Source: Spirochaetia bacterium (GTDB lineage Bacteria; Spirochaetota; Spirochaetia; SZUA-6; Bin103). Taken from it: a DNA stretch of 64,000 nucleotides. The notes under the pieces are model-generated. The model saw only the letters and a program-made list of their open reading frames with translations, was not told the DNA's origin and did not search any database. The stretch spans positions 1,056,001 to 1,120,000 of the forward strand of contig CBDAOI010000003.1 of assembly GCA_965198005.1 (NCBI GenBank). Reading direction: 5' to 3'. Numbering within the stretch: the first letter of the stretch is position 1; every line of letters starts with the position of its first letter. The translations under genes were made by a program, and so were the position numbers. Shown piece by piece: positions 2,780 through 28,733 of the stretch.

Positions 2780-2807
2780 TTGACGTTTTCTCATGAGACC
2801 GTATTAT
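2780..2807 (+). promoter_or_regulatory. Putative sigma70 promoter for the fliM-flhF operon
   Basis: TTGACG(2780-2785)-N16-TATTAT(2802-2807) in an AT-rich divergent intergenic region. Confidence 0.55.
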
Positions 2808-2918
2808 AGAACACTACGTTGCCCGCCCCACGCGGCGGGGACGGGGTCGCTGTTCGTGGGAGCCGCTTTCCCGCCCTGGAAGTTGGCCGAGGCGAACCGC
2901 GAAAACTGGGGGAAATGC

Positions 2919-3914
2919 GTGGACGTTATCAGTCAACGCCGCACGGCGCCGCCGCGGCGCACCGGCGACGCCGGCATCGGTCAGCCGGCTGTCAGGCCGC
3001 TCAGCCTGGGGCGGCCGGAGCACCTGTCGCCCGAACAGATCGCCGGACTGTCGGCGGTGCACGAGGGCTTCGCCCGGCGCGCCGGCGAGGCGCTGTCGGC
3101 GTACCTGCGCAGCCCGGTCCGACTCCACCTGAAGACCGTTCAGCAGCTCTCGTACGAGGAGTGCGCCCGGGCCCTGCCGGATCCCGGCGCCCTGGCCGTG
3201 GTGGAGTTGGAGCCGTTCGCCGGCACGGCGCTGCTGGCGGTCGATCAACCGTTCGCGTTTGCGGCGATAGACCGGCTGCTTGGCGGCCGGGGCGACTCTG
3301 CGGCGCCCGCGCGCGGCCTGAGCGACATCGAGCGCGCGGTAATGGAGAACATCGTGCACCGGCTGATGGCGCCTCTGGCCGCGGCGTGGCAGCCGGTACG
3401 GGCGCTCCGGCCGCGGTTGAGCCGCATCGAAACCGCCCCGGAACAGGCCCGGATCGCCGCGCCGCGGGAGGCCGTGGTGCGGCTGACGTTCGACCTCCGC
3501 CTGCGCGCGGCCGGGACCATGCATTTCCTGATTCCTCTTTCGGCCCTGGCCCCGGTCAGGAGCAGGCTCGGACCACGGTCGTGCGGGCACGCCGAGCGCC
3601 GGGAGGAGCGCGGCGCCGAAGCCGGCGGCCGCGGCGGCGGCCGCGCGCGCTCGCAACGGGCGACGCTCGGTGAGTTGCTGCGGGCGGCGCCGTTGCCGGT
3701 GACCGTGGAGCTCGGGGGCGCCTGCGTACCGTTGCGCGCCATCCTCGAGCTGACGGCGGGCGACGTGCTGCCGCTGGACCGGGTGCGGCCGGGCGACGAG
3801 CTGGCGGTTAAGGTAGGCGGCAGAACGAAGTTCATGGGGCGGCCGGGCGTGGTAGGCGGCCGGCTCGCCGTCCAGATCCGGGCACCGGCGCGGGTCGGGG
3901 GCGGGCCGGAATGA
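2919..3914 (+). CDS. fliM: Flagellar motor switch protein FliM (divergent; CheY-binding N-terminus degenerate)
   Basis: RP..LS.EQI..L...HE.FAR, IDRLLGGRG, LSDIER and a C-terminal SpoA domain. Start taken at GTG 2919 (MDVISQ). Confidence 0.85.
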   Translation: MDVISQRRTAPPRRTGDAGIGQPAVRPLSLGRPEHLSPEQIAGLSAVHEGFARRAGEALSAYLRSPVRLHLKTVQQLSYEECARALPDPGALAVVELEPFAGTALLAVDQPFAFAAIDRLLGGRGDSAAPARGLSDIERAVMENIVHRLMAPLAAAWQPVRALRPRLSRIETAPEQARIAAPREAVVRLTFDLRLRAAGTMHFLIPLSALAPVRSRLGPRSCGHAERREERGAEAGGRGGGRARSQRATLGELLRAAPLPVTVELGGACVPLRAILELTAGDVLPLDRVRPGDELAVKVGGRTKFMGRPGVVGGRLAVQIRAPARVGGGPE

Positions 3915-4273
3915 GTGCCGCCGACGTGCAGCCCATGCAGCTTGCCAGCCTGCAGCCGGAGGCCGAAACCGGCCACCACCGGACGCCGGCCGACATCGGG
4001 TTCCTGAAGGACGTGGACCTGCGGATCACGGTGGAGCTCGGCGGCACCACGCGGACGATCGGGGAGATTCTGGGCCTCGGCACCGGGTCGGTGATCGAGC
4101 TCGACAAGCTGGCGGGCGAGCCGGTCGAGATCCTGGTCAACCGCACGCCGATCGCCCGCGGCGAGGTGGTGGTGATCGACGACGCGTATGGCGTGCGGGT
4201 CACGGAGATCATGGCCGGCGTGCGGATGGGCGACGATGGAGCGGGCAACGGCTCCCGCGTCGAGGCGGGCTAG
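3911..4273 (+). CDS. fliN: Flagellar switch protein FliN (SpoA domain only)
   Basis: DV.LRITVELG, GSVIELDKLAGEPVEILVN, ARGEVVVIDD.YGVRVTEI. Confidence 0.92.
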   Translation: MSAADVQPMQLASLQPEAETGHHRTPADIGFLKDVDLRITVELGGTTRTIGEILGLGTGSVIELDKLAGEPVEILVNRTPIARGEVVVIDDAYGVRVTEIMAGVRMGDDGAGNGSRVEAG

Positions 4274-5003
4274 CGGCCTGCGCACCGTGGGTCGCCGCAG
4301 GCCGGCACGCGCACCCGCGGCACTGGTACTGCTGCTCATCGGGAGCGCGGTGCTTGGGCTGATCGGTCCGCTCGCCGCCCAGGAGCCGCAGCCGTCCACG
4401 CCGGAGCCGGCGGCGGGCGCCGCCGATCCCGCGCGCGACCTGACCCCGCTGCCCGGAACCGGGGAGTCGGCCGCGCTGGCGGTTGCACGCGCTCCCGCCG
4501 GCGGCGCGGCCCCGTCCACCTGGGACTTCGTGCGCATGGTGCTGGTGCTGGCCGCGGTGCTGGCCGCCATCTATCTGGTTTTCCTGTTGGTCAAGCGCAG
4601 CACGTCGGGACGGGTGCGGGAGAACGACCTGATCACCCTGGTCGGCTCGCGCACGCTCGGCGGCGGGCGCCACCTGCACTTGGTGCGGGTGGGTACGTCC
4701 TACTACCTGGTGGGGGCGGCGGACGAGTCGGTCAACCTGATTGCCGAGATTACCGACGGTGAGAGCCTCGACACGCTGAAGCTCGAGCTGTCCACGGCAA
4801 CGGTCGCGGGGCGGCGCAGTTTTGCGGACGTGCTCGGCGAGGCGTTCGGCGGCATCGGCGCGGGCGGCAGCCGGGGCCACGGTCACGGCGTCCTGCTTTC
4901 CGGCGGCGAGGCCGCCGCCGGAAGCGTGCTCGGCCAGCGGCGCCGCGGGGTCCAGAACGTGCACCGTCGACCCGGGCGGGGAGGGGCCGATGCCGGCAGT
5001 TGA
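4236..5003 (+). CDS. fliO: Flagellar biogenesis protein FliO/FliZ
   Basis: TM segment 'FVRMVLVLAAVLAAIYLVFLLVK' followed by 'LGGGRHLHLVRVG..YYLVG....VNLIAEI'; lies between fliN and fliP. Start uncertain. Confidence 0.8.
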   Translation: MERATAPASRRASGLRTVGRRRPARAPAALVLLLIGSAVLGLIGPLAAQEPQPSTPEPAAGAADPARDLTPLPGTGESAALAVARAPAGGAAPSTWDFVRMVLVLAAVLAAIYLVFLLVKRSTSGRVRENDLITLVGSRTLGGGRHLHLVRVGTSYYLVGAADESVNLIAEITDGESLDTLKLELSTATVAGRRSFADVLGEAFGGIGAGGSRGHGHGVLLSGGEAAAGSVLGQRRRGVQNVHRRPGRGGADAGS

Positions 5004-5793
5004 CCGCCGCTGGTGCGCCGGCGGCCTGCTCGCGCTGCTGGTGCTGGGCCAGCTCCTGGCACCGGCCCCGGCGGCCGCCCAGGAGCTGGTGGACGCGCTC
5101 GCCGACGGTGTGGGGTTTCCGTTCGTCGATCTGTCGGTGCGCGACGCCCAGTCGAACCGGGAAGTGCTGCTGTCGCTGCAGTTCCTGCTGCTGCTGGCGG
5201 TGGTGTCGCTGGCGCCTTCCCTGATCGTCCTGATGACCTCGTTCGTGCGGCTGGCGATCGTATTCGACTTGGTCAAGCGGGCCTTGTCGCTGCAGCACGT
5301 GCCGCCGCACCAGGTGCTGATGGGCATCGCCCTGTTTCTCACCCTGTTCATCATGTGGCCCACGCTCGACACGGTGAACCGCACCGCGCTGCAGCCGTTC
5401 GCGCGCGGCGAACTGAACACCGAACAGCTCCTGCAGCGGGCCGAGACGCCGGTGCGGGAGTTCATGTTTCGCCAGCTCGGGGACGACGCCGACAACATCC
5501 GTCTGTTCATGCGCATGCGCGACCTGCCGAAGCCGGCCACGCGCGCCGACGTGCCCACCTACATCCTGATCCCCGCCTTCATCCTGCACGAGCTGACGGT
5601 GGCCTTCAAGATCGGGATTCTGATCTTCGTGCCGTTCGTGATCATCGACCTGGTGGTGGCCACGGCACTGATTTCGATGGGCATCATCGTGCTCCCGCCG
5701 ATGCTGATCTCGCTGCCGTTCAAGCTGATCCTGTTCGTGCTGGTGGACGGCTGGGACCTGATCACGATGCAGGTGATCGCGAGCTTTCGCTGA
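4990..5793 (+). CDS. fliP: Flagellar export gate protein FliP
   Basis: MTSFVR, PPHQVL, LIPAFILHEL..AFKIG, LPFKLILFVLVDGW. Confidence 0.96.
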   Translation: MPAVDRRWCAGGLLALLVLGQLLAPAPAAAQELVDALADGVGFPFVDLSVRDAQSNREVLLSLQFLLLLAVVSLAPSLIVLMTSFVRLAIVFDLVKRALSLQHVPPHQVLMGIALFLTLFIMWPTLDTVNRTALQPFARGELNTEQLLQRAETPVREFMFRQLGDDADNIRLFMRMRDLPKPATRADVPTYILIPAFILHELTVAFKIGILIFVPFVIIDLVVATALISMGIIVLPPMLISLPFKLILFVLVDGWDLITMQVIASFR

Positions 5794-6074
5794 TGGACGG
5801 GGCCATGACAATGGGCGCGGCGGTGACTCTGGCGCGCGACGGCGTGCTGCAGTTGCTGATGATCGCGGGACCGATCCTCGGGGTGAGCGTGATCGTCGGC
5901 CTGGTGATCTCGATTCTCCAGGCGACCACCTCGATTCAGGAGCAGACGCTCACCTTCGTCCCCAAGATCCTCGCCCTGCTCGGCGTGGTATTCCTGCTCG
6001 CGCCCTGGCTCGGCGGTTCGATGGTGGAGTTTACTCGCCGCCTGTACGCGGCGATTCCGGGGATGGCGCTGTGA
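5793..6074 (+). CDS. fliQ: Flagellar export gate protein FliQ
   Basis: GLVISILQATTSIQEQTLTFVPK. Start at ATG 5793 or 5805. Confidence 0.95.
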   Translation: MDGAMTMGAAVTLARDGVLQLLMIAGPILGVSVIVGLVISILQATTSIQEQTLTFVPKILALLGVVFLLAPWLGGSMVEFTRRLYAAIPGMAL

Positions 6075-6916
6075 CCGCGGGCGGACTGCTGGACGGGCTG
6101 GTGACGCTCGACGACTGGTACGTGGGCCTGCTGGTATTTGCCCGGGTGCTCGCCATGATCCAGGTGGCGCCGCTGTTCTCGTCGTCCGCCGTCCCCCAGA
6201 TCGCCAAGTTCGGTCTGGCGCTGTTCCTTACGGTGATTCTGCTGCCGTGGGTGCTGGAGCGCGGCTATCCGGTGCCCGCGTCCGGCGTGCAGTATGCACT
6301 GCTGCTGCTCGGTGAGGCGCTGGTGGGCCTGCTGATCGGGTTTCTGATCTACCTGGCGGTCGCGGCGTTTCAGGTGGCGGGGCAGTTCCTTTCGCTGCAG
6401 CTCGGGTTCGACTCGGCCGAGGTGTTCGACCCGTTCAGCCGCAGCTCGCTGCCGTCGCTCGGCCAGTTGTTCCACCTGCTCGCGCTGCTGGTGTTCCTGA
6501 GCGTCGGCGGGGTGCACCGGTTCATGCTGACCGGCCTGCTCGGTTCGTTCCAGGCGCTGCGTGCCGGCGATCTGGCCGCGCCGGCGCTGCTGGGCACGCT
6601 GTCGCGCGGTCTGGGCACCCTGTTCGCGACCGCGTTCGCCATCGCGTTTCCGGTGTTCGGCGCGCTGGCGCTGGTGTCGGTCGCCCTGGCGCTGTTGGCC
6701 AAGGCGGCGCCGCAGATGAACCTGCTCATTCTGGGCGTGCCGATCGCGACGGCCGCCGGGCTGGTGATCCTGGTGCTGGCGCTGCCGGTGCTGCTGGAGG
6801 CGGTGGCGGCGGTCATCGACGGAGCGTTCGTGGAGTTGCGCCAACTGCTCGCGCGGCTGGCCGCCGAGCCCCGGCCGGCGCTGGATTCGGCCGCGGTCAG
6901 GGGAGGAGCGCTGTGA
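6071..6916 (+). CDS. fliR: Flagellar export gate protein FliR
   Basis: FARV..MI.VAPLFS, AFQVAGQ...QLGF, KAAPQMN. Confidence 0.93.
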   Translation: MTAGGLLDGLVTLDDWYVGLLVFARVLAMIQVAPLFSSSAVPQIAKFGLALFLTVILLPWVLERGYPVPASGVQYALLLLGEALVGLLIGFLIYLAVAAFQVAGQFLSLQLGFDSAEVFDPFSRSSLPSLGQLFHLLALLVFLSVGGVHRFMLTGLLGSFQALRAGDLAAPALLGTLSRGLGTLFATAFAIAFPVFGALALVSVALALLAKAAPQMNLLILGVPIATAAGLVILVLALPVLLEAVAAVIDGAFVELRQLLARLAAEPRPALDSAAVRGGAL

Positions 6917-7992
6917 GCGGCTGGTCCGGCGCGGAACACGAGGGGCGTACCGAGGCCCCCAGCGCCGCCCGACTGCGGGCTGCCCGCAGCGCGGGAGTGG
7001 TGCCGCGCACCACCGAGCTGCCGGCGGCGATGACGCTGGTGGGCGCGGTCGCGGCCCTGGCGGTGCTGGGACGTTCGGCGGTGGCCACGGTGAGGGAGAT
7101 GCTGCGCGTGTTCTTGATGCAGGCTGCCACGCCCGAGGTGGCGGCCACGCCGGCGAGCGCCGAGCTGGCATTCTCCTACCTGCTCCGTCTGGTGCTGCCC
7201 GTGGCCGGGATCGGCTTGGTGGCCGCGCTGGCCGGGAATCTGGTGCAGGTCCGGCCGCGGCTCGCGGTCAGACCGGTTGCGCCCGATTGGCACCGGATCG
7301 TTCCCCGGTTCCTCAGTTACTTCAGGCGTGCGCTGTTTTCCGCCGAGGCGGCCTACCGGCTGGCCGCCACCGCGCTCAAGGTGCTGGTCATCGCGGCGCT
7401 CGCGGGCGCGACCATTCACGCCGTGCTCGAGCGGCTGGCCGGTAGCGTGCGGATGCCGCTCGAAGCCGCCGGCGCACTGTTAGCGGCGGCGGCGCTGCGC
7501 ATGGCCGGCAGCGTGGCGCTGCTGCTGCTGGCCCTGGCGATTGCCGACTATCTGGTGCAGCGCCGGCGCCACCGCCGGGCACTGCGGATGACCCCGCGCG
7601 AGGTGCGCGAGGAGCGCCGCCGGCAGGAGCCCGATCCCCAGGTGCGCCGCCGGCTGCGCGCCCGCATGCGCGAGTTGCTGTCGCGCGACCTGGCGCGGCA
7701 GGTGGCGGGTGCGGCGGCGGTCATCACCGGCGGCGCGCGCTGGGCGGTGGCGGTGCGCTGGACCGGGCACGCCCTGGCGGCGCCGGTGGTGGTGGCCAAG
7801 GGGCTGGACGAGGCCGCCGGCAGGATCCGCGCGGCCGCCGCCGCCCACCCGGTGCCGCTGGTGGAGCGCCCGCAGTTGGCGCGGGTGCTGGCCGAGTACG
7901 TCGAGGTCGGCGACCCGGTCCCCGCCGCGTACTTCCGGCCGCTGGCGGAGGCACTGGCGCGGACCGCACCGGGGGAGGTGCCGGATGGCTGA
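6913..7992 (+). CDS. flhB: Flagellar export switch protein FlhB, lacking the NPTH autocleavage motif
   Basis: RTEAPS..RL, LRMT.REVREE...E.DPQV, APVVVAKG.D, PLVE.P.LAR. The expected VITNPTH reads VITGGAR. Confidence 0.9.
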   Translation: MSGWSGAEHEGRTEAPSAARLRAARSAGVVPRTTELPAAMTLVGAVAALAVLGRSAVATVREMLRVFLMQAATPEVAATPASAELAFSYLLRLVLPVAGIGLVAALAGNLVQVRPRLAVRPVAPDWHRIVPRFLSYFRRALFSAEAAYRLAATALKVLVIAALAGATIHAVLERLAGSVRMPLEAAGALLAAAALRMAGSVALLLLALAIADYLVQRRRHRRALRMTPREVREERRRQEPDPQVRRRLRARMRELLSRDLARQVAGAAAVITGGARWAVAVRWTGHALAAPVVVAKGLDEAAGRIRAAAAAHPVPLVERPQLARVLAEYVEVGDPVPAAYFRPLAEALARTAPGEVPDG

Positions 7993-9997
7993 CGCAAAGA
8001 CCGCCGGCCCGTACGCCTTCAGCGGCTGGCAGCGGCGCAGCGACGTGCTGGTGGCCCTGTTCGTGATCGTGTTCATCCTGATGATGTTGATTCCGCTGCC
8101 GGCAGTGGTGCTCGACCTGTTCATGGCGCTCAACATCTGTCTCGGCCTGCTGGTCATTCTGATCGTGCTCTACACCCGGAGTCCGTTGGAGTTCACCATC
8201 TTTCCGACGCTGCTGCTGCTGGCCACGGTGTTCGGGCTGGCTCTCAACGTCTCGTCGACGCGGCTGATTCTGGCACAGGGCGCGGCCTTCGAGGGTCGCA
8301 TCGTGCGCGCGTTCGGAAGCTTCGTCGTGGGCGCTCCGGGTACCGCCGGCTACGTCATCGGCGCGATCATCTTCACCATGATCATGGCCGTGCAGTTCGT
8401 GGTCATCACCAAGGGCGCCACGCGGGTAGCCGAGGTGGCGGCCCGCTTCACCCTGGACGCCCTTCCCGGCAAGCAGATGGCGATCGACGCGGAGTACAAC
8501 TCCGGCCTGCTGTCGGAAGCGGAAGCGACGCGGCGCAAGAACGAGCTGCGGCGCGAGACCGACTTCTACGGCGCCATGGACGGCGCCTCGAAGTTCGTGT
8601 CCGGGAACGTGCGCGTCGGGGTTCTGATCACGCTGATCAACCTGGTCGGCGGGCTGATCGTGGGCGTCGCGGTGCGCTCCGAGCCCCTGGCCGCGGCGGC
8701 GGGAACCTACGTGTCGCTGACCATCGGCGACGGCCTGGTAACGCAGCTCCCGGCGCTGCTGATTTCCACCGCCACCGGGATCATCGTGACGCGCGCCGTC
8801 TCCGATGCCTCGTTCGGCCGCGACCTGGCGCGCCAGCTTGCGCTGCACCATCGGCCGTTCTACATCGCCGCGGGTTTCCTCGCGGTGCTTGCCCTGCTGC
8901 CCGGCTTTCCCGTGCACGTGTTGCTGCCGCTGGCCGCGGTGCTCGGCTGGTGCGGCCATGCCATCGGCCGCCGGCAGGCGGGCGCCGCCGGCGCCGAACC
9001 ACCAGCCGCCACCGAGCCGGGCCCTGCCGCGCGGGCGGCGTCGCCGCCAGCCGCCGCCGCGCCGGTGGCCCCCGTGTCACCGGTGGCGCCGCCCGATCCG
9101 CTGGCGGTCGAGTTGGGGTATGGACTGGTGCCGCTGGCCGAGGAGGAGGGCGGTACCGACCTGTTGCAGCGGCTGGCCGCCGTGCGCCGCGCCGCGGCGC
9201 AGGAACGCGGCCTGGTGGTGCCGCCGGTTCGGATTGCCGACAACCTGAACCTGCGGCCCACCGAGTATGCCGTCAAGATCCGCGGCGTCGAGGTGGAGCG
9301 CGACCGCCTGCGCGGCGGCGCGCAGGAGCTGGCTGCCCGCCTGACACGGATCATCGAGCGGCGCGCGGCCGACCTGCTCGGTCGAGAAGACGTGAAGTCG
9401 ATGCTCGAGGCGCTCCGGGGGGACTATCCGACCGTGGTCGAAGAAGCCACGGCGACGCTGTCGGTCGGCGAGATTCAGCGCGTGCTGCAGGCGCTGTTGG
9501 CAGAGGGGGTGTCGATACGCGATCTGGTGGCTATTCTCGAGGCGCTCGGCGACTACGCGCCCGAACGGCGGGACACCGGGTTTCTGGTGGAACGGGTGCG
9601 CCGGACACTGGCGCGGCAGATTTCGCAGCAGCACGCGGGCACGGACGGGGTACTGCACGTCCTGACGCTGGCGCCGGACCTGGAACGGCGGGTGATCGAA
9701 GCCGCCGCGGAGGGCGCCGACGAAGGTCCGAACGGCGGTGCGGCGGCCGGCGGCCGCTCGGCGGAGTGGCGGCGGCACTGGGTCGGCGCCCTGGCGGAGG
9801 CGGTCGCGGAGGCCGAGCGGCGGGGGCACCCGCCGGTGGTGTTGTGCCCCGCGCCGGCACGGGCGTGGGTGCGGGCCGCCACCCGGCGCGAGCTCCCGCA
9901 CCTGGTGTGCCTGGCGGACACCGAGCTGGCCGAGGTCGCCGTGACAGCGCTGGCGGAAGTGCAGCCGGAGCGGCCGGCGGGAGAGGGCGGGCGGTGA
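7985..9997 (+). CDS. flhA: Flagellar export protein FlhA with an internal deletion in the cytoplasmic domain
   Basis: RVAEVAARFTLDALPGKQMAIDA, DFYGAMDGASKFV, LTIGDGLV.QLPAL, ELGYGLVPL, LLAEGVSIRDL. ATG 7985 overlaps the flhB end. Confidence 0.95.
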   Translation: MADAKTAGPYAFSGWQRRSDVLVALFVIVFILMMLIPLPAVVLDLFMALNICLGLLVILIVLYTRSPLEFTIFPTLLLLATVFGLALNVSSTRLILAQGAAFEGRIVRAFGSFVVGAPGTAGYVIGAIIFTMIMAVQFVVITKGATRVAEVAARFTLDALPGKQMAIDAEYNSGLLSEAEATRRKNELRRETDFYGAMDGASKFVSGNVRVGVLITLINLVGGLIVGVAVRSEPLAAAAGTYVSLTIGDGLVTQLPALLISTATGIIVTRAVSDASFGRDLARQLALHHRPFYIAAGFLAVLALLPGFPVHVLLPLAAVLGWCGHAIGRRQAGAAGAEPPAATEPGPAARAASPPAAAAPVAPVSPVAPPDPLAVELGYGLVPLAEEEGGTDLLQRLAAVRRAAAQERGLVVPPVRIADNLNLRPTEYAVKIRGVEVERDRLRGGAQELAARLTRIIERRAADLLGREDVKSMLEALRGDYPTVVEEATATLSVGEIQRVLQALLAEGVSIRDLVAILEALGDYAPERRDTGFLVERVRRTLARQISQQHAGTDGVLHVLTLAPDLERRVIEAAAEGADEGPNGGAAAGGRSAEWRRHWVGALAEAVAEAERRGHPPVVLCPAPARAWVRAATRRELPHLVCLADTELAEVAVTALAEVQPERPAGEGGR

Positions 9998-11295
9998 CCA
10001 CCGCGTACTTCAAGGTGCAGGGCACGACCCCGCGTGAGGCGCTCGCCAACATGAAGCGGCTGTATGGACCGGACGCCCGCATACACTCTCACCGCGTGGT
10101 CAAGATCGGAGGACTGTTCGGCCTGTTCAAGCGCGACGGAGTAGAGATTACCGGGTTCGTGGATCCGCCGGCGGCGTACGCCGCGGCGACCGCGTCGGAA
10201 CCGGCCCCGGCCGACGCGGAGCCGGCCGCGGCCCAGCAGCGGTTGGCGTACGAGCAGCGCCGGATCCTGGAGCAGACGCCCTCCGGGGCCGGTCTGCGGC
10301 GGCTGGTAGACGAGGTGGCGGCACTGCGCGCCCGGCTCGACCGCTCGTTGCCGGAGACCGCCGAGGTGACCGTACGGCTCGGTGAGCATCCGTGTCTGCT
10401 CGCATTGGACGCACTGCTGGTGCGCAACGACTTCGCCCCCGGCTACCGCGCGCGGCTGCTCGATCGGGTACGGTCGGAGTTCACCCTGCAGCAGCTTGAG
10501 GACCGGGCCGCCGTGCACCGCTACGTGGCCCTGCAGATCGGCCGTGCGCTGTCGGTGGCGCAACCCTTGACCGGGACCGACGACACCGCCGCCGGCGGGC
10601 CGCTGGTGTGCATCGTGGTCGGTCCGACCGGCGTCGGCAAGACCACCACAATCGCCAAGCTGGCGGCGATCCACGGCCTCGGCAACGGCGCCGGCGAACG
10701 CCGGAACGTGCACATCGTGACGATCGACAACTATCGCATCGGCGCCCGCCAGCAGATCGAGACCTACGGCGAGATCATGCGCATTCCGGTCACCACGGCC
10801 GAAACCGCGGAGGATCTCAAGAAGGCGGTGGCGCTCGGGCGCGACCTGGACCTCATCTTCGTCGACACGGTCGGCCGCAGTCCGGCCGACTACGCCCGCC
10901 TAGGCGAAATGCGCGCCGTGCTGGAGGCAGCCGGCCGGCGCAGCACGACCCAGCTTGCCGTGAGCGCCACCACCAAGCATCCGGACCTCGAGCAGATCCT
11001 GCGCCAGTTCGAGCCGTTCGGATACGACACCGTGATCGTCACCAAGCTCGACGAGACCGCCGCCATCGGCAACGTGCTGTCCGTGCTGGCGGAGCGCCGC
11101 AAGCCGGTCTCCTACCTGTGCGACGGGCAGGTGGTGCCGCAGGACATCGCACGGGCATCGATCGGACGGTTGCTGGTCAGCCTGGAGGGGTTCGAGCTCG
11201 AGCGTGCGGCGCTGGAGCGTGAGTTCGGGACCTTCGGGGAGGCGCCGGCGCCGTCCGCCGGGAAAGAGCGGATGCCGATCTTGACCTCGCCGTGA
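9994..11295 (+). CDS. flhF: SRP-family GTPase FlhF
   Basis: GPTGVGKTTTIAKLAA, D.YRIGA, DTVG, TKLDE, GQ.VPQD. GTG 9994 overlaps the flhA stop. Confidence 0.93.
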   Translation: MTTAYFKVQGTTPREALANMKRLYGPDARIHSHRVVKIGGLFGLFKRDGVEITGFVDPPAAYAAATASEPAPADAEPAAAQQRLAYEQRRILEQTPSGAGLRRLVDEVAALRARLDRSLPETAEVTVRLGEHPCLLALDALLVRNDFAPGYRARLLDRVRSEFTLQQLEDRAAVHRYVALQIGRALSVAQPLTGTDDTAAGGPLVCIVVGPTGVGKTTTIAKLAAIHGLGNGAGERRNVHIVTIDNYRIGARQQIETYGEIMRIPVTTAETAEDLKKAVALGRDLDLIFVDTVGRSPADYARLGEMRAVLEAAGRRSTTQLAVSATTKHPDLEQILRQFEPFGYDTVIVTKLDETAAIGNVLSVLAERRKPVSYLCDGQVVPQDIARASIGRLLVSLEGFELERAALEREFGTFGEAPAPSAGKERMPILTSP

Positions 11296-11309: not shown

Positions 11310-11343
11310 CTCGGAAATTGGGTTGTGTCCGTGGGGCGATGCT

Positions 11344-12168
11344 ATGGCGCGTGACAGCCGGGAGCTAGGCGTGGCAGATCCGGTCCCGGAGGCCGCTGAC
11401 GCCGTTCCGGAAGAAGAGCTGTGGAGGCGCTACCGGCAGCGCCGGGATCCCAAGATACGCGACCACTTCATCCGCCAGTACGCGCCGTTGGTCAAGTACG
11501 TGGCCGGCAAGATGGCGGTGGGCATGCCCGGCAACGTGGAGTTCGACGACTTGGTGGGCTACGGCGTGTTCGGGCTGTTCGACGCCATCAAGAAGTTCGA
11601 TCCGACCAAGCACGTCAAGTTCAAGACCTACGCCGTGACGCGGATTCGCGGAGCGATCTTCGACGAGTTGCGCACCATCGACTGGGTGCCGCGCTCGGTG
11701 CGCCAGAAGGCGCGCGAGGTCGAGGAAGCCGTGCGCACCCTGGAAGCGAAGCTCGGACGCGCCGCCACCGACGCCGAGATCGCCAAGAAGATGAACATGC
11801 CCCCGGACGAGTTCCAGCAGCTCATGCTCAAGATCAGCGGCACCTCGATCCTGTCGCTCAGCGACGTGTGGTACAGCGGTGACGACAATGACCGCATCTC
11901 GGTGGCGGAGAGTATCGAGTCTCCGACCAGCCTCAATCCCGATTCGATCGTGGAGAAGGATGAGATCAAGCGGGTGATCGTCGAGGCAATCGGCGAACTG
12001 TCGGAGAAGGAGCAGAAGGTGCTGGTGCTCTACTATTACGAGGATCTCACGCTGAAGGAGATCGGTGAAGTGCTGGAAGTCACCGAGTCGAGAGTCTCCC
12101 AACTCCACACCAAGGCGATCATCCGACTGCGCGCCAAGCTGACCAATCTGAAACGTGGTGTCGCCTGA
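11344..12168 (+). CDS. fliA: RNA polymerase sigma-28 factor (FliA/WhiG family)
   Basis: [61 protein letters not shown]. Confidence 0.96.
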
Positions 12169-12222: not shown

Positions 12223-12250
12223 TAATGCGCAGGGACGGAATGGTCGATAT
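12223..12250 (+). promoter_or_regulatory. Candidate sigma28-type promoter
   Basis: TAAT-N16-GTCGATAT versus consensus TAAA-N15/16-GCCGATAA/T. Confidence 0.4.
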
Positions 12251-12255
12251 GCAGA

Positions 12256-13581
12256 GTGATGCATTATTCCCGGTACCGCACCCTGGAACGGCAGCAGGTA
12301 GTGCCCCGCAACGGGCACAGCCGATTCGCGCGCGCAGCGCCCCGTGCGCTCCGTAACCAGCAGCCGAGCACGCGCCGCCCGTCCGCCCGCCGGACCCCGA
12401 CTGCGTCCCGCTCCCCGGTCGCACTGCTCGGCGCGACGGCGCGGTCCATGGCCCGCGGCCGGAGCAGCGTGCGCGAGCTGGTGCGCAAGGTCCACGCCGC
12501 CGCGGCCGCACTGTTGTCCCGCATGGTAATCCGGCCGATGCATGCCACCGCCACGGTGCTGCTGGTGGTGGCTGCCCTGACCGCAACCACTCTGGCCCAG
12601 ATCGCCCCCAGCGAGCCCAGCCCACGGCTGTCGCCGCAGGTGTTGACGGACGGACTGGCGACCCCGGCGACGGTGCACTTGGCCGCGGCAGTCCCGGGCA
12701 CGGGCGCAGCGCCGGGTTCGGTCGTGGCATCGTCGGCCGGCGCAGCGACCGGAATCGCTACCGTGGCGACCGCCGGCGCCGCGTTGCCTGCCGAGCCGGC
12801 GAACGCGGCGAACCCGGCGAACCCGGCGGTGTCGACCGCCGCCCAGGGCCTCCCGCCAATCCAGCGGGTTCACCCGCACCAGGTGGTGAGCGGCGATACG
12901 CTGTCGGGGCTGGCGGCGCGGTTCGGGATTACGCTCGATACGATCATCAGTTTCAATGACATCAAGCGTGCCCGCGACCTGCGCGTGGGACGCGAGCTGA
13001 CCATCCCCGCCGCATCGGGAGTGCGCTACGAGGTGCGCCGGGGTGACAGTCTGAGCGGCATCGCGGTGCGCCACGGCGTGGATCTCAGCACCGTGCTCGC
13101 GGCCAATGCGGTGCAGGGCGAGTTGATCACGCCGGGGCAGGTCCTGATGATCCCCGGCGGCCGCCTGGGTGAGAACGAGCTCAACCGCGTGCTCGGACGG
13201 CTGTTCGTGTGGCCGGCCCGCGGGCGACTGACCTCCGGCTACGGTTACCGCAACGATCCGTTCACCGGAATCCGCAAGTTTCACAACGGCATCGACATCG
13301 CCAACGCCCAGGACACCGCGGTGGTAACGGCGATGGGTGGCAGCGTGGCGATGCTGGGTTACAACGGAAACTACGGGCGCTACCTGATCATCCGCCATCA
13401 GGATGGCTTCCAGACTCTGTACGCGCATCTGCACAAGATAGTCGTGGAACGCGGCCAACGGGTGCGTCAGGGACAGCGCGTCGGTTCGATGGGGACCACG
13501 GGATACAGCACCGCCAGTCATCTGCATTTTTCCATCTTCCAGCATGGCCGCCACGTCAATCCGGTGAAGCATCTCGACTGA
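12256..13581 (+). CDS. LysM x2 + M23 peptidase (true start may be later, e.g. ATG 12523)
   Basis: Two GD(T/S)LS.(L/I)A LysM repeats; M23 motifs HNGID, YAHL, HLHF. Confidence 0.9.
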   Translation: MMHYSRYRTLERQQVVPRNGHSRFARAAPRALRNQQPSTRRPSARRTPTASRSPVALLGATARSMARGRSSVRELVRKVHAAAAALLSRMVIRPMHATATVLLVVAALTATTLAQIAPSEPSPRLSPQVLTDGLATPATVHLAAAVPGTGAAPGSVVASSAGAATGIATVATAGAALPAEPANAANPANPAVSTAAQGLPPIQRVHPHQVVSGDTLSGLAARFGITLDTIISFNDIKRARDLRVGRELTIPAASGVRYEVRRGDSLSGIAVRHGVDLSTVLAANAVQGELITPGQVLMIPGGRLGENELNRVLGRLFVWPARGRLTSGYGYRNDPFTGIRKFHNGIDIANAQDTAVVTAMGGSVAMLGYNGNYGRYLIIRHQDGFQTLYAHLHKIVVERGQRVRQGQRVGSMGTTGYSTASHLHFSIFQHGRHVNPVKHLD

Positions 13582-13610
13582 GTAAGCCGCACCCCGCGAA
13601 CGTATCTTCC

Positions 13611-13638
13611 CCCATTCTGCACAATTGTGCAGAATGGG
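13611..13638. repeat. Perfect 28-bp palindrome
   Basis: CCCATTCTGCACAA|TTGTGCAGAATGGG is its own reverse complement. Confidence 0.95.
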
Positions 13639-13650
13639 TGGCGGATCGGA

Positions 13651-14655
13651 ATGAGGACTGACGCAAGGCAGCGCCGGCGCGGCCGCGGGAGGCGGTGGCT
13701 GGCGATTCTGGCCGCCGGTTGCGTGGCCGCACTGGTCGTTCAGGCTACCGTGATCGGGCCCACGCGCACGGCGCCGTACGATGAAGGGGAGTACCTGTTG
13801 TTCCCGGGCGATTGGCTGGCCACGACCCGGAACGCCTACCCGCAGGTCGGGGCCGGGGGATTTGCCGCGAGCGCGCACGGGGTCGGCGGCAGCGCCGAGG
13901 GAATCGACCCGCCACCGTTGTCGCTCGCCAGCAAGTACTACCGGGTGCGGCGCGGCGACACCTTTACCGGCATCGCTGCCCGGTTCGGGTTGACCCTGGA
14001 CACGATCGCCTCGTTTAACCGGGACGCCGGGGTCGGGGTGCATCAGCTCGCCATCGGCGAGTTGGTCAAGATTCCGAACCAGGATGGGATCTACCTGCCG
14101 GTAGGCGACGATCTGGCGCAACTCAGCCTGGAACAGGGAGTGTTGCCGGAGACGGTGCTGGTAGCCAACGGCGTCGATCTCGACGAGTTGACGCCGGCCA
14201 CGGAATTGTTCTTTCCCGGCGTCCAGCACTCCGGGCACGAGCTGGCCATGGTGACCGGGGCCGCATTCACGCGTCCGACCGCCGGCTGGGTGAGTTCCCG
14301 GTTCGGTCCGCGGATCGACCCGTTCACCGGCACCCGGAGTTTCCACCACGGGGTCGACCTTGCGGCGCCGCATGGGACCGCGGTGCGCGCCACCCAGGAT
14401 GGCAAGGTAGCCGCCACCGGCCACAGCCGGGTGTTGGGCAAGTACATCATCATCACCCACTACGTGGCCGGGTACTCCTCACTGTACGGCCACCTGCATC
14501 GGGTCTACGTGCGCCGCTCCGAACGGGTGCGCGGCGGTGAGCCGATCGGCACCGTCGGCGCTACCGGGCAGGTGACCGGTCCCCACCTGCACTTCGAACT
14601 ACGGCGCGGCAAGATCCGGCTCGACCCCGCGCAGTTCATCTCCGGTCTCCGCTGA
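13651..14655 (+). CDS. LysM + M23 peptidase
   Basis: N-terminal TM, GDTFTGIA LysM, HHGVD, YGHL, GPHLHFE. Confidence 0.9.
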   Translation: MRTDARQRRRGRGRRWLAILAAGCVAALVVQATVIGPTRTAPYDEGEYLLFPGDWLATTRNAYPQVGAGGFAASAHGVGGSAEGIDPPPLSLASKYYRVRRGDTFTGIAARFGLTLDTIASFNRDAGVGVHQLAIGELVKIPNQDGIYLPVGDDLAQLSLEQGVLPETVLVANGVDLDELTPATELFFPGVQHSGHELAMVTGAAFTRPTAGWVSSRFGPRIDPFTGTRSFHHGVDLAAPHGTAVRATQDGKVAATGHSRVLGKYIIITHYVAGYSSLYGHLHRVYVRRSERVRGGEPIGTVGATGQVTGPHLHFELRRGKIRLDPAQFISGLR

Positions 14656-20930: not shown

Positions 20931-22967
20931 TCAGCGGCCGGCTGCCGCCGCGGCAGCCTGGGATCGTTTGATCACGTCATCGGCGAGACGTCCGGTCACC
21001 GGCGCGTATTCGGCGAACTCGACCTCGAACGACCCCGTACCCGAGGTCATCGACTTGAGATCGATGGCGTAGCGCAACAGTTCCGCCTGCGGCACCAGCG
21101 CCTTGACCTCGAGCATGCCGCCGCCGATCGGTTCCTGGCCCTGAATGCGTCCGCGCCGCCCGCTCAGGTCCGACAGCACGTCGCCCAGATAATGCTCTTC
21201 GACCGAGACCGTAAGGTTGGAAATCGGCTCCAGCAGCACCGGCCGGGCCTTGCCCAGCGCGTCGCGCAGCGCCCCGCGCGCCGCCAGCGAGAAGGCCAGC
21301 TCGGACGAGTCGACCGAGTGCTCCCTGCCGTCCACCAGCGTCACCTCGATTCCCATCACCGGGTACCCGGCCAGCACGCCGCTGGTCATTCCTTCGCGGA
21401 GCCCTTTCTCGACTCCGGGAATGTAGCCGCGTGAGATGGCGCCGCCGAAGATCTGGTTGACGAACTGGAACTCTTCGCCGCCCCGTGGCACCGGCTTGAC
21501 CTTGATCTCGACCTTGGCGTATTGGCCGTGGCCGCCGGTCTGTTTCTTGTGCTGATACTCGGCCGCCGCCGATCCCGCGATCGTCTCGCGGTAGCCGACC
21601 CGCGGGACCTTGGTCTCGACCTCGATCTTGGCGGCGCGCTTGATCTTGTCCAGCACCACGGTGAGCTGGAGTTCGCCCATGCAGGACGCCACGTTCTCGC
21701 GCGTCTCTCCGTTGTAGGCGACCTTGAAGGTCGGATCTTCCTCCCCGGCGCGGGCCAGGAACTGGCCGAGCTTGTCGTCGTCCTTCTTGGAAGCCGCCGC
21801 CACCGTGACCGCGTGCACCGGCTGCGGCAGATCCAGCGGAGGATAACTGACGTCCGACCCCTGGGCCAGAGTGTCTCCCGTGGCGGCGGTCGACAGCTTG
21901 GTGAGGACGCCGACGTCGCCGGTTGCCAGGGCGGGGGTCTCCGTCAGTTTGCCCCCTTGCAGCAGGTACACCTTCGAAATCCGTTCCTTCTTGCGGTCAC
22001 GCTGGTTGGTCAACTCGGTGTCCGGCTTGAGCGTGCCCTGCATCATCCTGATCCACGACAGCTTGCCCGAGTACTGGTCGAGGCTGGTCTTGAACACGAA
22101 CGCCTCCGGACCGTCCGCGGCGTCGGCGGCGGACGCGTCCGGGGCCGGCGCCGCGAGCTGTACCAGGTCGAGCACGCTGGTGACGCCGGCGCCGGCGGTC
22201 ACGGCGCCCGCTACCACCGGCACCACCGCCCCGGACCGCAGGGCAATGGCGAGACCGGTGCGGATCTCTTCGTCGCTCAGGGTTTCCTCATCGAGGTATT
22301 TCTCCATCAGCACGTCGTCGCCCTCGGCGGCTCCCTCGATGAGATCCTGGCGGTACTGCTCCACCTCGTCGGCCAGCTCGGACGGCACGTCGGCCGCGGC
22401 TTCCCGTCCGTCGTCCTGCACCAGCGCCGTGCCGCGGAGCAGGTCCACCACCCCGGAGAACCCCGCGCCGGCCCCGATCGGAACGGCCACCGGGACGAAG
22501 GTGCCGGGCAGTTTCGCGCGCAGATCGGCGAGCGTGTCGGCGAAGCTGGCGTGCTCCTTGTCCATCTGATTGACGAACACGATCCGCGGCTTGGCCGCGG
22601 CCTCGAGGCGGCGCCACAGCTTGGCGGTCTCGATCTGGACGCCCACGTCGGCGCCGACCGTCACGATCGCGGTTTCGGCCACGTGCAGCGCCGCCACCGC
22701 CTCCCCGATGAAGTCGGCCGAGCCGGGGGTGTCGAGCAGGTTGACCTTGGCGCCATTCCACTCGAGGTGCCCGAGGGCGGTGTGAATCGAGATCCCGCGC
22801 GCTATCTCTTCCTCGGTGCGGTCGCTGACCGACTTGCCGGCGTCCACCGGCGCGAACTTGGGCACCTCGCCGCCGCGCACCAGCGCCAGTTCCATGAGCG
22901 ATGTCTTTCCCGTGCCGCCGTGACCGATGATCGCGACGTTGCGGATGTCGGAAGAAGCGATGCTCAT
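20931..22967 (-). CDS. fusA: Elongation factor G paralogue (EF-G II type: divergent G domain, canonical domain IV loops)
   Basis: GHGGTGKT, RGISI, DTPG, NQMD, MGELQL, KKQTGGHGQY, HSVDSS; AAGGAG SD before ATG 22967. Confidence 0.92.
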   Translation of the reverse strand: MSIASSDIRNVAIIGHGGTGKTSLMELALVRGGEVPKFAPVDAGKSVSDRTEEEIARGISIHTALGHLEWNGAKVNLLDTPGSADFIGEAVAALHVAETAIVTVGADVGVQIETAKLWRRLEAAAKPRIVFVNQMDKEHASFADTLADLRAKLPGTFVPVAVPIGAGAGFSGVVDLLRGTALVQDDGREAAADVPSELADEVEQYRQDLIEGAAEGDDVLMEKYLDEETLSDEEIRTGLAIALRSGAVVPVVAGAVTAGAGVTSVLDLVQLAAPAPDASAADAADGPEAFVFKTSLDQYSGKLSWIRMMQGTLKPDTELTNQRDRKKERISKVYLLQGGKLTETPALATGDVGVLTKLSTAATGDTLAQGSDVSYPPLDLPQPVHAVTVAAASKKDDDKLGQFLARAGEEDPTFKVAYNGETRENVASCMGELQLTVVLDKIKRAAKIEVETKVPRVGYRETIAGSAAAEYQHKKQTGGHGQYAKVEIKVKPVPRGGEEFQFVNQIFGGAISRGYIPGVEKGLREGMTSGVLAGYPVMGIEVTLVDGREHSVDSSELAFSLAARGALRDALGKARPVLLEPISNLTVSVEEHYLGDVLSDLSGRRGRIQGQEPIGGGMLEVKALVPQAELLRYAIDLKSMTSGTGSFEVEFAEYAPVTGRLADDVIKRSQAAAAAAGR

Positions 22968-23045
22968 GGCTGTGATCTCCTTGCAGGCACGTTCGGGGTG
23001 CGCGGCGCGTCGCTCGGGGCGGGGCGACCGGCGCACCGACTCCAC

Positions 23046-23074
23046 ATCGTAGACCGGCGCGAACGGCTTGTCAA
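23046..23074 (-). promoter_or_regulatory. Putative sigma70 promoter of the EF-G II gene
   Basis: Minus strand TTGACA-N17-TACGAT. Confidence 0.65.
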
Positions 23075-23215
23075 CCGACCGGATCGAACTGGCCATGCCT
23101 GACGAAACCGCACACGACGGGGAGTCGCCTTCGATCATCCAACGGTTACCGAGTCCGCTACACCACGTCGTACATGCGCTGTCCTCCGTGCTGGCCCATC
23201 GGTCTGACGGCCGCC

Positions 23216-23249
23216 TTGCATCCTTCCTGATTTTGCATGACAATGTCAT
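23216..23249 (+). promoter_or_regulatory. dinJ-yafQ promoter with overlapping palindromic operator
   Basis: TTGCAT-N17-GACAAT; ATGACA-A-TGTCAT inverted repeat (23237-23249) covers the -10, as expected for TA autorepression. Confidence 0.55.
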
Positions 23250-26569: not shown

Positions 26570-26695
26570 GTCGTCGCGCAGTGGGAGCACGAGGCGATCA
26601 GCGAACGCACCGCCGCGGCCCTCGCCGCCAAGCGTGCCCGCGGCGAGCGCATCAGCGGCCAGGCCCCTAGCGCCACGAAGGCGGCCGCGTGGTAG
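26438..26695 (+). pseudogene. Chimera: yafQ 5' half fused in frame to a serine-recombinase (resolvase) fragment
   Basis: YafQ residues up to DQPLE, then [33 protein letters not shown], matching the resolvase E-helix pattern AqwEre.I.ERt...l..k...G. Confidence 0.7.
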
Positions 26696-28724
26696 TCGAG
26701 GCGCCTGCGGGGGTGCGCGGCGCGAAGTGGGTGAAGAACATGGCGAATGCGCCGCGGCCCCGGGTCAGGCTGCGGAGCGTCGTCGAGTACCCGAACATGC
26801 GCGCCAGCGGCGCGTGCGCGGTTACCTGCTCGGCCCCGGCGCGCGACTCCACGCCGAGCACGGTCGCGCCGCGAGTGCCGAGGTTGCCGATTACGTCGCC
26901 GAGAAACTCCGCGGGCACCGTGACGTCCACTTCCATGACCGGCTCCAGCAGCACCGGCTCCGCTTGCCGGCAGGCGTCGGAGAAGGCCAGTGCTCCCGCC
27001 GCCTCGAATGCCACCGCCGACGAGACCGCCTCGTAGGTGGCGGCCTCGACGATGACCGCGATGTCGATGGTCTGGTAACCGTACAGCACACCGGAGCTCA
27101 TGGCGTTGCGGATTCCCCGTTCCAGTGCTTGCGCCACCGCCGCGGGCAAGGTCCCGCCGGCCAGCTCGCTCGCCACCCGGTTGCCGCCGCCCGGCGCCTG
27201 CGGCTCCACCCGCAGGGTGAGCTCGGCCAGGTGCAGGTTCCCGGCGATAGTACGCTGGAAACGTTGGTGGAAGCGGGCGGACCTGCTGATCGACTCGCGG
27301 TAGGAGACCTGCGGCTGACCGACCCGCGTTTCGACCCGGAACTCCGCCGACAGCCGCCGGACCACCACGTCGAGGTGCAACTCACCCATCCCCGAGATCA
27401 CGATCTGGCCGGTCTCCGCACTCTCCTCGACGAAGAAGGTGGGGTCTTCACGTGCGATCAGCTCCAGCGCCCCCCGCAGCCTTCCGGCCTCCGCCAGCGT
27501 GCGCGGCTCCACGGCCGCGGCAATGACGGGTTGCGGAAAGCTCATCCGCTCCAGCAGCAGGTCGACGCCGGCGCCCGCCAGGGTGTCGCCGGTGCGGACG
27601 TGCTTGAATCCGACCGCCACGGCGATGTCGCCGGCGGCGAGCTCGTCCAACGGCTGCGATCGATTGGCGTGCATCCGCAACAGCCGGCCGATCCGCTCGC
27701 GCCCGCCGCGGCCGACGTTGCGCACGGTGGCGCCGGTCTTGAACCGGCCCGCGTACGCCCGCACGTAGGTCAGGAGTCCTGCCTCCCGGTCGGTGCGCAG
27801 CTTGAACGCCAGACCCACGGGAGCGCCGGTCCGCGTGCGCGCCAACGCTACCGGATTGCCGGCACGGTCCAGCGCCGTGGCGGGCGCCAGCTCGTCCGGA
27901 CCCGGCAGGTAGTCGACCACCGCGTCGAGCAGGGGCTGGACACCGACGTCACGCAGTGCCGATCCACAGAACACCGGAAAGAAATCGTTGGCGATGGTGC
28001 GCCGGCGAATCTCGCGCCGCAGCAGCCCGGCCGGTATCGGAGCGCCCTCCAGGTAGCGCGCGGTAATCTCGTCCGAGGTGTTGGCCAGCTCGTCGAGCAG
28101 GCGTTCGCGCGCCGCCGCCGCCGCGCCGGCCAGCTCCGGGGGGATCGGCCCCCGCTCCACCTGTTCCCCGCGGGGACCCTTGAACCGGAGCGCGACCTGG
28201 TCGATCAGGTCGACGATGCCCGTAAACGCGGCCTCGGTCCCGAACGGAAGCTGCAGGGGCACGGGTCGTACGCCGAGCTTGGCCGCCATCTCGCCGACCA
28301 CCGCCTCGAACCGCGCTCCGACCCGGTCGAGCTTGTTGATGAACGCGATGCGCGGCACGCGGTAGCGGTCGCTCTGCCGCCACACCGCCTCGGACTGCGG
28401 TTCGACGCCCTCGACCGCGGAGAAGATCCCGACCGCCCCGTCGAGGACGCGCAGCGCCCGTTCGACCTCGGCCGTGAAATCGACGTGACCGGGGGTGTCG
28501 ATGAGGTTGATCTGGTGGGCGCGCCAGAAGCAGGTGGTGGCCGCCGCGGTAATCGTGATGCCGCGTTCCTGTTCCTGGCTCATCCAGTCCATGGTGGCCT
28601 CGCCGTCGTCGACCTCGCCGATGCGGTGGCTCCGGCCGGTGTAGAACAGGATCCGTTCGGTGGTGGTGGTCTTGCCGGCATCGATATGGGCGATGATGCC
28701 GATGTTGCGGACCCGGTCAGCCAT
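26667..28724 (-). CDS. fusA: Elongation factor G paralogue (canonical G domain, degenerate domain IV; recycling-type EF-G2-like)
   Basis: [48 protein letters not shown] and HDVDSS loops replaced. Confidence 0.92.
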
Positions 28725-28733
28725 GGGACCCGG

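Follow-up and report, generated by a model that had tools for sequence, protein, structure and literature searches.

The flagellar export gate protein FlhA encoded in a 64,000-nucleotide stretch of a Spirochaetia bacterium genome (GenBank assembly GCA_965198005.1, contig CBDAOI010000003.1; the whole stretch is called the window here) lacks about 51 residues, which are precisely subdomain D2 of its cytoplasmic domain (FlhA-C). The same gap occurs in every FlhA recovered from the window's genus, a lineage that, with a single exception, apparently no longer builds a flagellum. The reading preferred here, to which a probability of roughly 70% is given, is that D2 was lost as a tolerated excision in a reduced export core that is still functional. 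In every flagellar and injectisome export gate, FlhA-C acts as the platform on which exports are sorted. To our knowledge, work on its D2 has until now relied mostly on point mutants. This natural deletion, kept through the radiation of a genus, stands alongside the loss of the FlhB cleavage site, the ruler FliK, the chaperones and the ATPase, and shows what an export machine can shed once no flagellum is built.

The D2 gap and its inheritance

The window flhA gene encodes 670 residues in frame +3, laid out as a transmembrane domain (about residues 1-330), a Pro/Ala-rich linker, and cytoplasmic subdomains D1, D3 and D4; D2, the remaining member of the usual D1-D2-D3-D4 series, is absent. The Pfam profile FHIPEP matches the protein with E=1.4e-207 and 691.7 bits (gathering cut-off 29.1), aligning as two pieces (profile positions 2-403 and 455-654 of 657) within a single open frame that contains no stop. 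This is the only FHIPEP gene in the genome. The parts of the gene that matter for the argument are as follows.

7985..9997, + strand: flhA, 670 aa; start MADAKT at nt 7985, stop ending at 9997
9098..9319, + strand: first part of D1 (GYGLV motif, beta-sheet); constraint strongly relaxed in the genus
9311..9328, + strand: junction RGGAQE; the last D1 strand ends at residues ~441-445 and the D1 return helix starts at residue ~449
9329..9964, + strand: D1 return helix, D3 and D4 (approximate boundaries); Ala-451 is the Thr-490 equivalent

The original prediction, made from the DNA letters alone, had placed an in-frame gap the size of D2 at RGGAQE, and the peptides it quoted lie where it put them: YAVKIRGVEVERDRL begins at nt 9266, RGGAQE begins at nt 9311, and LAARLTRIIERRAADLLGREDV follows directly. 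About 51 residues are gone relative to every reference, which marks a structural gap as opposed to a pattern arisen by chance. Residues 2-445 pair with residues 2-436 of 12dv_B (459 bits) and residues 449-660 with 488-694, leaving 51 reference residues (12dv_B 437-487) opposite three in the window protein (446-448, AQE, nt 9320-9328); the break is identical against 36hw_A2 (..428 / 487..) and 7amy_A (..427 / 484..). In Salmonella numbering, which we take to be D1 362-434/484-503 and D2 435-483, the chaperone-docking dimple at the D1/D2 interface comprises Asp-456, Phe-459 and Thr-490, and its D2 half is deleted here. No D2-like sequence that could act in trans was found elsewhere in the genome (best E 0.088).

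The protein is an FlhA orthologue by descent and synteny, and thus a trimmed member of the FHIPEP family. Its membrane-domain residues 20-330 share a mean identity of 63% with motile relatives. Identity as an injectisome SctV was considered and ruled out, since the top solved relatives are FlhA chains (574, 401 and 337 bits), scoring above SctV-type chains (321 and 284 bits), and the neighbouring genes are flagellar.

Inheritance of the gap was followed in 41 genomes, the window's own and 40 related ones, queried with the FlhA protein. These genomes are 76-98% complete (the window's own is 90% complete, in four contigs) and comprise the window's genus (11), a sister genus (13) and seven other families of the order (17). 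FlhA was found in 30 of the 41: in nine of the ten other members of the genus (the miss being G002), in 3 of 13 in the sister genus, and in 17 of 17 from the other families. A MAFFT alignment of these 30 proteins bears out the expected gap against FHIPEP family members, which spans about 50 columns at the junction. D2 is absent at the same site from all ten FlhA of the genus, while the 51-residue D2 is kept in 3/3 from the sister genus and 17/17 from the other families. The linkers that replace it in the genus are variable and only a few residues long (RGGA-QE, RFGGD, RIGSN, RGARGCG, RPGGDCT and others), and no set of differing random deletions was seen. The metagenomic protein P0001, an additional genus-like member, has the same gap. 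Because the other FlhA proteins of the genus share it at only about 60-67% identity to the window protein, the excision is older than the radiation of the genus, in which it is fixed.

At the level of DNA, two runs, each belonging to a different study, have one contig apiece that spans positions 8800-9900 gap-free (X2, 4080 nt; X3, 5193 nt); one of the runs may be the source sample of the window assembly. These contigs differ from the window by one base (A>G at 9004), and no misassembly was seen. In a wider sample of the phylum, FHIPEP was found in 396 of 400 other genomes. Nearly all of the 150 matches viewed are full length, and in the small number that are shorter nothing but one end of the profile is missing. 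Ten of about 19 weak or split cases were inspected and all ten proved to be contig ends or frameshifts, so that within this sample no D2-less FlhA was seen elsewhere in the spirochaetes.

The fold is predicted to survive the excision. An AlphaFold2 model of residues 372-670, built from a 27-sequence alignment, has a mean predicted local distance difference test score (pLDDT) of 89.9 and a predicted template-modelling score (pTM) of 0.86. Across the junction, the last D1 strand (model residues 64-70) leads through a four-residue turn into the return helix (75-88), and pLDDT exceeds 90 to either side of the turn; the model blocks 61-70 and 71-80 have pLDDT of 95 and 92. In Foldseek, the model superposes on solved FlhA-C structures with TMq values of 0.78-0.82, among them Bacillus 3mix (0.80, 36% identity) and Salmonella 6ch1, 6ch2, 6ai0 and 3a5i (0.79-0.82), with Helicobacter and Vibrio FlhA-C also matched. 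D1, D3 and D4 are therefore predicted to fold normally without D2, which the original prediction had thought possible; the D1-D3 ring contacts may be preserved as well. A complex prediction with three D2-less FlhA-C copies gave a score of 0.23 and a mark of 0.42, which has no bearing on ring formation either way. Overall, the view that this is a tolerated excision and not random damage is supported, and none of the outcomes named beforehand as fatal to it occurred.

Flagellar genes kept and lost

The loss of D2 coincides with that of the parts it would serve. The Pfam families FliS, Flagellin_N and Flg_bb_rod each match 18 of the 41 genomes, namely the 17 of the other families and G002, and are absent from 10/10 genomes with D2-less FlhA and from 13/13 of the sister genus. 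Flg_bb_rod is the N-terminus common to rod, hook and FlgK proteins. FliD_C, FlgN and MotB_plug were found in none of four genomes of the genus tested and in each case in the motile control G037; T3SS_ATPase_C and MCPsignal gave no match in five genomes. The genes of the G037 flagellar operon were named by Pfam, and all 31 of its proteins were run by tblastn against the window's genome. FliF (45%), FliG (62%), FliA (79%), FliM, FliN (C-terminal part only), FliO, FliP, FliQ, FliR, FlhB, FlhA and FlhF are present. FlgB, FlgC, FliE, FliH, FliJ, FliK, FlgD, FlgE, FlbD, MotA, MotB, FliL, FapA and CheW were not found, and FliI and FlhG gave only weak matches at the level of other ATPases. The result is an orphan core, in which the gate genes for FliOPQR, FlhB and FlhA are kept and Flagellin_N, FliD_C, FliS and FlgN are missing. 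The genus, G002 excepted, is apparently flagellum-less.

Two further elements of the substrate switch were shed besides D2. The FlhB autocleavage motif NP[TV]H is conserved in 17/17 motile relatives and in 0/10 of the genus, which carries GGAR in the window and DAAR, HGER, HGGR, DPAR or AAAR elsewhere. In the sister genus, FlhB (three genomes; loci L021, L027 and L032) ends at about residue 262, right before the cleavage site. The D1 half of the dimple has drifted too: Thr-490 of 36hw_A2 (a 692-aa chain) aligns to Ala-451 in the window protein. The equivalent position is part of an ATH motif in 17/17 motile relatives; no member of the genus has Thr there, and the sister genus has Asp or Gly. 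The GYXLI motif is also degenerate in some species of the genus (GLALV). D2 is one of several switch parts shed.

The retained genes form a compact operon, fliM-fliN-fliO-fliP-fliQ-fliR-flhB-flhA-flhF-fliA, followed by two LysM/M23 peptidase genes, in a window of 69% G+C. Besides flhA, it is made up as follows.

2793..3914, + strand: fliM, the first gene of the operon here; a divergent thiamine-pyrophosphate (TPP) enzyme gene lies upstream
3911..4273, + strand: fliN, C-terminal FliMN_C domain only, without the CheX-like FliY part
4188..5003, + strand: fliO
4822..5793, + strand: fliP, start uncertain
5805..6074, + strand: fliQ
6071..6916, + strand: fliR
6913..7992, + strand: flhB, with GGAR in place of the NPTH autocleavage motif
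10000..11295, + strand: flhF, a signal recognition particle (SRP)-type GTPase, start approximate; no flhG follows
11323..12168, + strand: fliA (sigma-28), sharing 79% identity with its counterpart in a motile relative
12226..14655, + strand: two LysM + M23 peptidase genes

Four other members of the genus (G001, G003, G007 and G010) share the order hslU-fliF-fliM-fliN-fliO-P-Q-R-flhB-flhA-flhF-fliA-M23-M23. In the window's genome, fliF lies 117 kb from the operon. The sister genus, represented by G011, has hslU-fliF-fliO-P-Q-R-flhB(short)-flhA-fliA, without fliM, fliN and flhF. The ancestral operon is hslU-fliF-fliM-fliN-fliOPQR-flhB-flhA-flhF-fliA, with fliG elsewhere. FliF and FlhA occur in the same 30 of 41 genomes, and FliG_C matches 11/11 genomes of the genus (the window's own and G002 counted) and 0/13 of the sister genus. 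The sister genus has FlhA with D2 even though FliM, FliN, FliG and FlhF were not found there, so that one and the same operon was reduced along another route. An FlgM-like open reading frame of 94 aa lies at C3:180089-180370 in the window's genome (34 bits, above cut-off); one is also present in G011 and, weakly, in G003, and none was found in G001 or G007.

Several observations concern the surroundings of these genes. The LysM + M23 pair (window and loci L060-L064) follows fliA in 4/4 other members of the genus that were examined, and in the sister genus it is found a few kb downstream of that gene; the motile G037 has FapA after fliA and no such pair. A lone near-consensus sigma-28-type site at C2:741150-741174 (- strand) falls in a local AT-rich stretch with no clear downstream gene. 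Four sigma-28 look-alike sites lie inside paralogous transporter genes, and a search for sigma-28-type sites upstream of the flagellin genes of motile relatives gave nothing usable. Elsewhere in the window, two EF-G-like GTPase genes no more than 6 kb apart, both on the minus strand, occupy 20934-23249 and 26670-28733; the former has an N-terminal extension of about 100 residues. The genus is apparently sponge-associated, with which matching sponge metatranscriptome contigs agree; a paper on a sponge spirochaete symbiont (PMC11656744) contains no mention of "flagell" or "motil".

The exception within the genus is G002, an assembly of 510 contigs that is 81% complete and contains FliS, three flagellins, an FlgL-like protein and FlgB/FlgC. 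Its contig with hslU-flgB-flgC has 66% G+C. HslU identity is 76-79% between G002 and the reduced members of the genus, 80-90% among the latter, and 69-71% between the two genera. This single gene suggests that G002 branched early within the genus and kept its flagellum. In that case the two genera may have reduced their flagella separately, a question that one gene cannot settle. The metagenomic protein P0002, the best D2-bearing match, was considered for timing the deletion and set aside, as it is not specially close to the genus.

Selection, rival readings and recurrence

In the reading favoured here, removal of D2, an insertion in D1, links the last D1 strand to the return helix through a turn of 3-7 residues. 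D2 forms half of the dimple where FliS, FlgN and FliT deliver filament-type substrates, and takes part in the hook-to-filament switch. With the filament, hook-filament junction, cap, chaperones, rod, hook, FliK, FliHIJ ATPase, stators and chemotaxis all lost, D2 would be left without a task and could be lost at no cost; the excision would be tolerated because its docking clients are missing from these genomes. The remaining operon encodes the MS ring, the C ring and the membrane export gate. Such a core may be an ATPase-independent gate that runs on proton-motive force (PMF) and opens to the periplasm, or a membrane platform, in either case with a non-flagellar role. Candidate exports into the periplasm would be the anti-sigma factor FlgM and other proteins, FlgM being the concrete candidate because a FliA + FlgM-like pair is retained.

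Selection on flhA was assessed from pairwise identities among eight full-length FlhA of the genus and 16 motile relatives, and from the ratio of non-synonymous to synonymous substitution rates (dN/dS, Nei-Gojobori) in four close pairs of the genus and three motile pairs. With strong codon bias at 70% G+C, these dN/dS values may come out somewhat too high.

Mean identity, membrane domain: genus 0.82, motile 0.74
Mean identity, first part of D1: genus 0.615, motile 0.88
Mean identity, D1b + D3: genus 0.69, motile 0.73
Mean identity, D4: genus 0.57, motile 0.60
dN/dS, whole gene: genus 0.208-0.219, motile 0.046-0.105
dN/dS, membrane domain: genus 0.08-0.12, motile 0.05-0.14
dN/dS, D1: genus 0.18-0.32, motile 0.02-0.06
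dN/dS, D3: genus 0.06-0.31, motile 0.08-0.18
dN/dS, D4: genus 0.17-0.56, motile 0.04-0.11

All of the ratios for the genus are below 1. They point to purifying selection that is relaxed and acts most strongly on the membrane parts.

A more specific form of the favoured reading is put forward only tentatively. It holds that selection maintains a minimal type III core, consisting of MS ring, C ring and gate, without ATPase, rod, hook, ruler or FlhB cleavage and with an FlhA ring of D1-D3-D4, for PMF-driven export or signalling directed to the periplasm, for example as a repurposed FlgM/sigma-28 checkpoint. If it is true, then, with D2 also lost independently by a planctomycete-like clade (below), absence of D2 would be a general mark of export cores that work outside flagellum assembly.

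Several results weigh against the favoured reading. The relaxation of constraint on FlhA-C amounts to 2-4 fold overall and 5-10 fold for D1. In G009 and G010 (loci L054 and L053), FlhA stops shortly after the D1 return helix, with flhF immediately next, so that D3-D4 are lost, although the membrane domain of these proteins is still 76-90% identical to that of relatives. FlhA was not found in 10 of the 13 genomes of the sister genus. Relaxed constraint, D3-D4 loss and FlhA-less genomes all fit slow decay. The sister genus also lost the same clients but keeps D2 in its three FlhA-bearing genomes; since it retains D2 without these clients, client loss is not sufficient for the excision, and permits it without forcing it. 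A whole-genome scan for sigma-28-type promoters gave no strict and one core match, and hence no canonical site. Two short identical contigs in sponge metatranscriptome libraries (9479-9657 and 9655-9856) may be DNA carry-over, and the stretches of 8800-9900 not covered in these libraries carry no information. All gene absences are "not found" results in genomes that are 76-98% complete. Finally, no flhA or fliF is present in the 81%-complete assembly of the flagellated G002, so flagellum loss may have come before or after D2 loss.

The strongest rival is neutral decay, by which the operon would be a non-functional leftover and the D2 deletion an early, inherited in-frame lesion. This is considered unlikely. 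It draws on the same evidence of erosion, namely a dN/dS 2-4 times that of motile relatives, a D1 identity of 0.615 against 0.88, the missing D3-D4 in two species, and, in the sister genus, truncation of the FlhB C-terminus together with the missing FliG, FliM, FliN and FlhF and the ten genomes without FlhA; the FlgM-like frame is, moreover, the sole known substrate left. However, eight species whose FlhA is about 60-67% identical to the window's keep full-length frames without stops, and dN/dS stands at about 0.21 for the gene as a whole and at about 0.1 for its membrane domain. Eleven genes have been retained together with their order conserved, and FliA still shares 79% identity with its counterpart in a motile relative. 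Over the 0.16-0.44 synonymous divergence per site seen in even the closest pairs, a neutral relic would not have remained open.

Part of the evidence on a second rival comes from metagenomes. With the D2-less FlhA-C as query, 1.84 billion representatives yielded 4771 matches, of which the best 150 were considered and 16 fetched. P0001, P0005 and P0012 are genus-like. Eight further fetched proteins or clusters lack D2: P0135 (full length, 575 aa), the P0043 cluster (with a full-length member, P0151, of 694 aa), P0010, P0016, P0023, P0091, P0136 and P0007. D2 is present in P0097, P0002, P0003 and P0008. A scan of metagenomes with P0151 then gave 311 relatives, and the best 80 loci included 71 near-full-length FlhA; D2 is absent from nine of these (L065-L071, L074 and L096, some of them mutual duplicates) and present in 62. 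The neighbours in this D2-less clade are DUF1573, sulfatase-related and GFO/IDH/MocA genes, flhF and fliA, a gene context that looks planctomycete-like. The clade is unrelated to the spirochaete genus, and D2 was thus excised at least two times independently, at the same domain borders.

Other FlhA-C-like proteins were seen in the same searches. P0010, P0016, P0023, P0091, P0136 and P0007 are FlhA-C-like, lack both membrane domain and D2, and come from low-GC metagenomic contigs; the contigs that bear most proteins without a membrane domain measure 1-5 kb, and these proteins may be fragments. P0007 consists of an FlhB-C-like piece and two FlhA-C copies. In P0079, which likewise has no membrane domain and comes from a low-GC contig, FlhA-C with a short D2 remnant is fused to an AAA+ ATPase. 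The motile G025 has, beside a normal flhA, a second, shorter FlhA-C-like frame (C17:21793-22776, 482 aa) with 37-40% identity to residues 363-650. A parallel loss of the FlhB site in the planctomycete-like clade was considered and rejected, as L070 has NPSQ where D2-bearing relatives have NPTE and so keeps Asn-Pro. In L070, flhF and flhG are missing between flhA and fliA.

These data bear on adaptive re-tooling, in which removal of D2 was itself selected because it alters what the FlhA ring accepts or locks the ring in a single state, to suit either a non-secretory role or a new substrate that is chaperone-free. The idea is improbable, more so than decay. It gains from the independent loss in 9 of the 71 planctomycete-like loci, from the D2-less FlhA-C paralogues without transmembrane segments, from the parallel loss of the FlhB cleavage site in the genus, and from the precision of the excision at domain borders in both clades. 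Against this, linker sequence and length vary freely in the genus and D1 near the junction evolves fast, the sister genus copes with D2 retained, no new partner or substrate was identified, and an inserted domain that is dispensable would be just as likely to be lost repeatedly. The last alternative, an assembly or binning artefact or a frameshift misread as an in-frame deletion, is refuted: although the window's assembly has four contigs at 90% completeness and one spanning DNA run may be its source, the frame is continuous, nine other genus assemblies and P0001 have the same gap, and contigs of two studies cross the junction.

Tolerated excision in a working, reduced core remains the preferred account. 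The genus and its relatives offer a comparative map that separates parts of the substrate-switch and late-substrate module from those of the core gate, and a stepwise series from the full machine through D2-less FlhA, a D1-only FlhA-C and loss of the C ring to nothing. They also provide a natural D2-less FlhA-C that is ready for use in structural and export tests.

Comparison with known systems

The FlhA-C structures of Salmonella, Bacillus, Helicobacter and Vibrio (3a5i, 6ch1-6ch3, 6ai0, 3mix, 3myd and 7amy) share with the spirochaete protein the folds of D1, D3 and D4, the FHIPEP membrane domain and the place of the gene in the operon, after flhB. In contrast to them, the spirochaete FlhA lacks the 51 residues of D2, and its Thr-490 equivalent is not conserved. 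Salmonella FlhB variants that do not cleave (N269A and P270A) are locked in rod/hook-type export. The FlhB of the genus likewise lacks Asn-Pro at the cleavage site, but here the change is natural, fixed, and found in a lineage without hook or filament substrate. By analogy, the substrate-specificity switch has probably gone together with D2 and FliK.

The role that the original prediction assigned to D2, as half of a D1/D2 dimple including Phe-459 that docks chaperone-substrate complexes, agrees with the portion of PMC9431611 that was available. There, a conserved hydrophobic dimple at the D1/D2 interface of FlhA recognises substrates, Phe-459 of D2 is needed to dock FlgN-FlgK but not FlgD (F459A), and, while the filament is being assembled, the linker of FlhA binds the adjacent subunit at D1 and D2 (PMC9431611). 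Each of these partners and steps is missing from the genomes with D2-less FlhA. Export that does not depend on the ATPase has been described in Salmonella (PMC4230889).

Orphan flagellar cores and partial sets were already known, and the natural D2-less FlhA is a new variant among them; a full-text literature search, with subscription papers and supplements outside its scope, found no report of one. The non-flagellated Lysobacter enzymogenes secretes non-flagellar proteins through a relic that resembles the type III secretion system of flagella; its strain OH11 lacks flagellin and keeps flhA, flhB and fliPQR, which are expressed and needed for secretion and twitching, according to the sections of PMC7688988 at hand. 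OH11 retains FliI, the rod, the hook, the hook cap FlgD and the L/P rings, none of which the spirochaete core has, and those sections mention no loss of an FlhA domain, unlike the case of the spirochaete protein (PMC7688988). In Bacillus subtilis, the flagellar CORE (FliOPQR-FlhBA) serves as a nanotube platform independently of flagellin, the flgB-fliF genes and FliI, and orphan COREs occur in Myxococci, Chloracidobacterium and Succinatimonas, as set out in the accessible part of PMC6456723. These orphan COREs and the spirochaete genus both keep the gate genes without the rest of the organelle. The genus differs in keeping FliF and the C ring; trimming of FlhA is not described in that part of the paper (PMC6456723).

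A survey, in the portion consulted, notes some genomes with rotor proteins and no filament and asks whether these have another function, and it finds the Spirochaetota sets to be nearly complete (PMC12199754). Compared with those sets, the genus described here is an exception, and it brings a case from the spirochaetes to the short list of orphan flagellar cores known so far.

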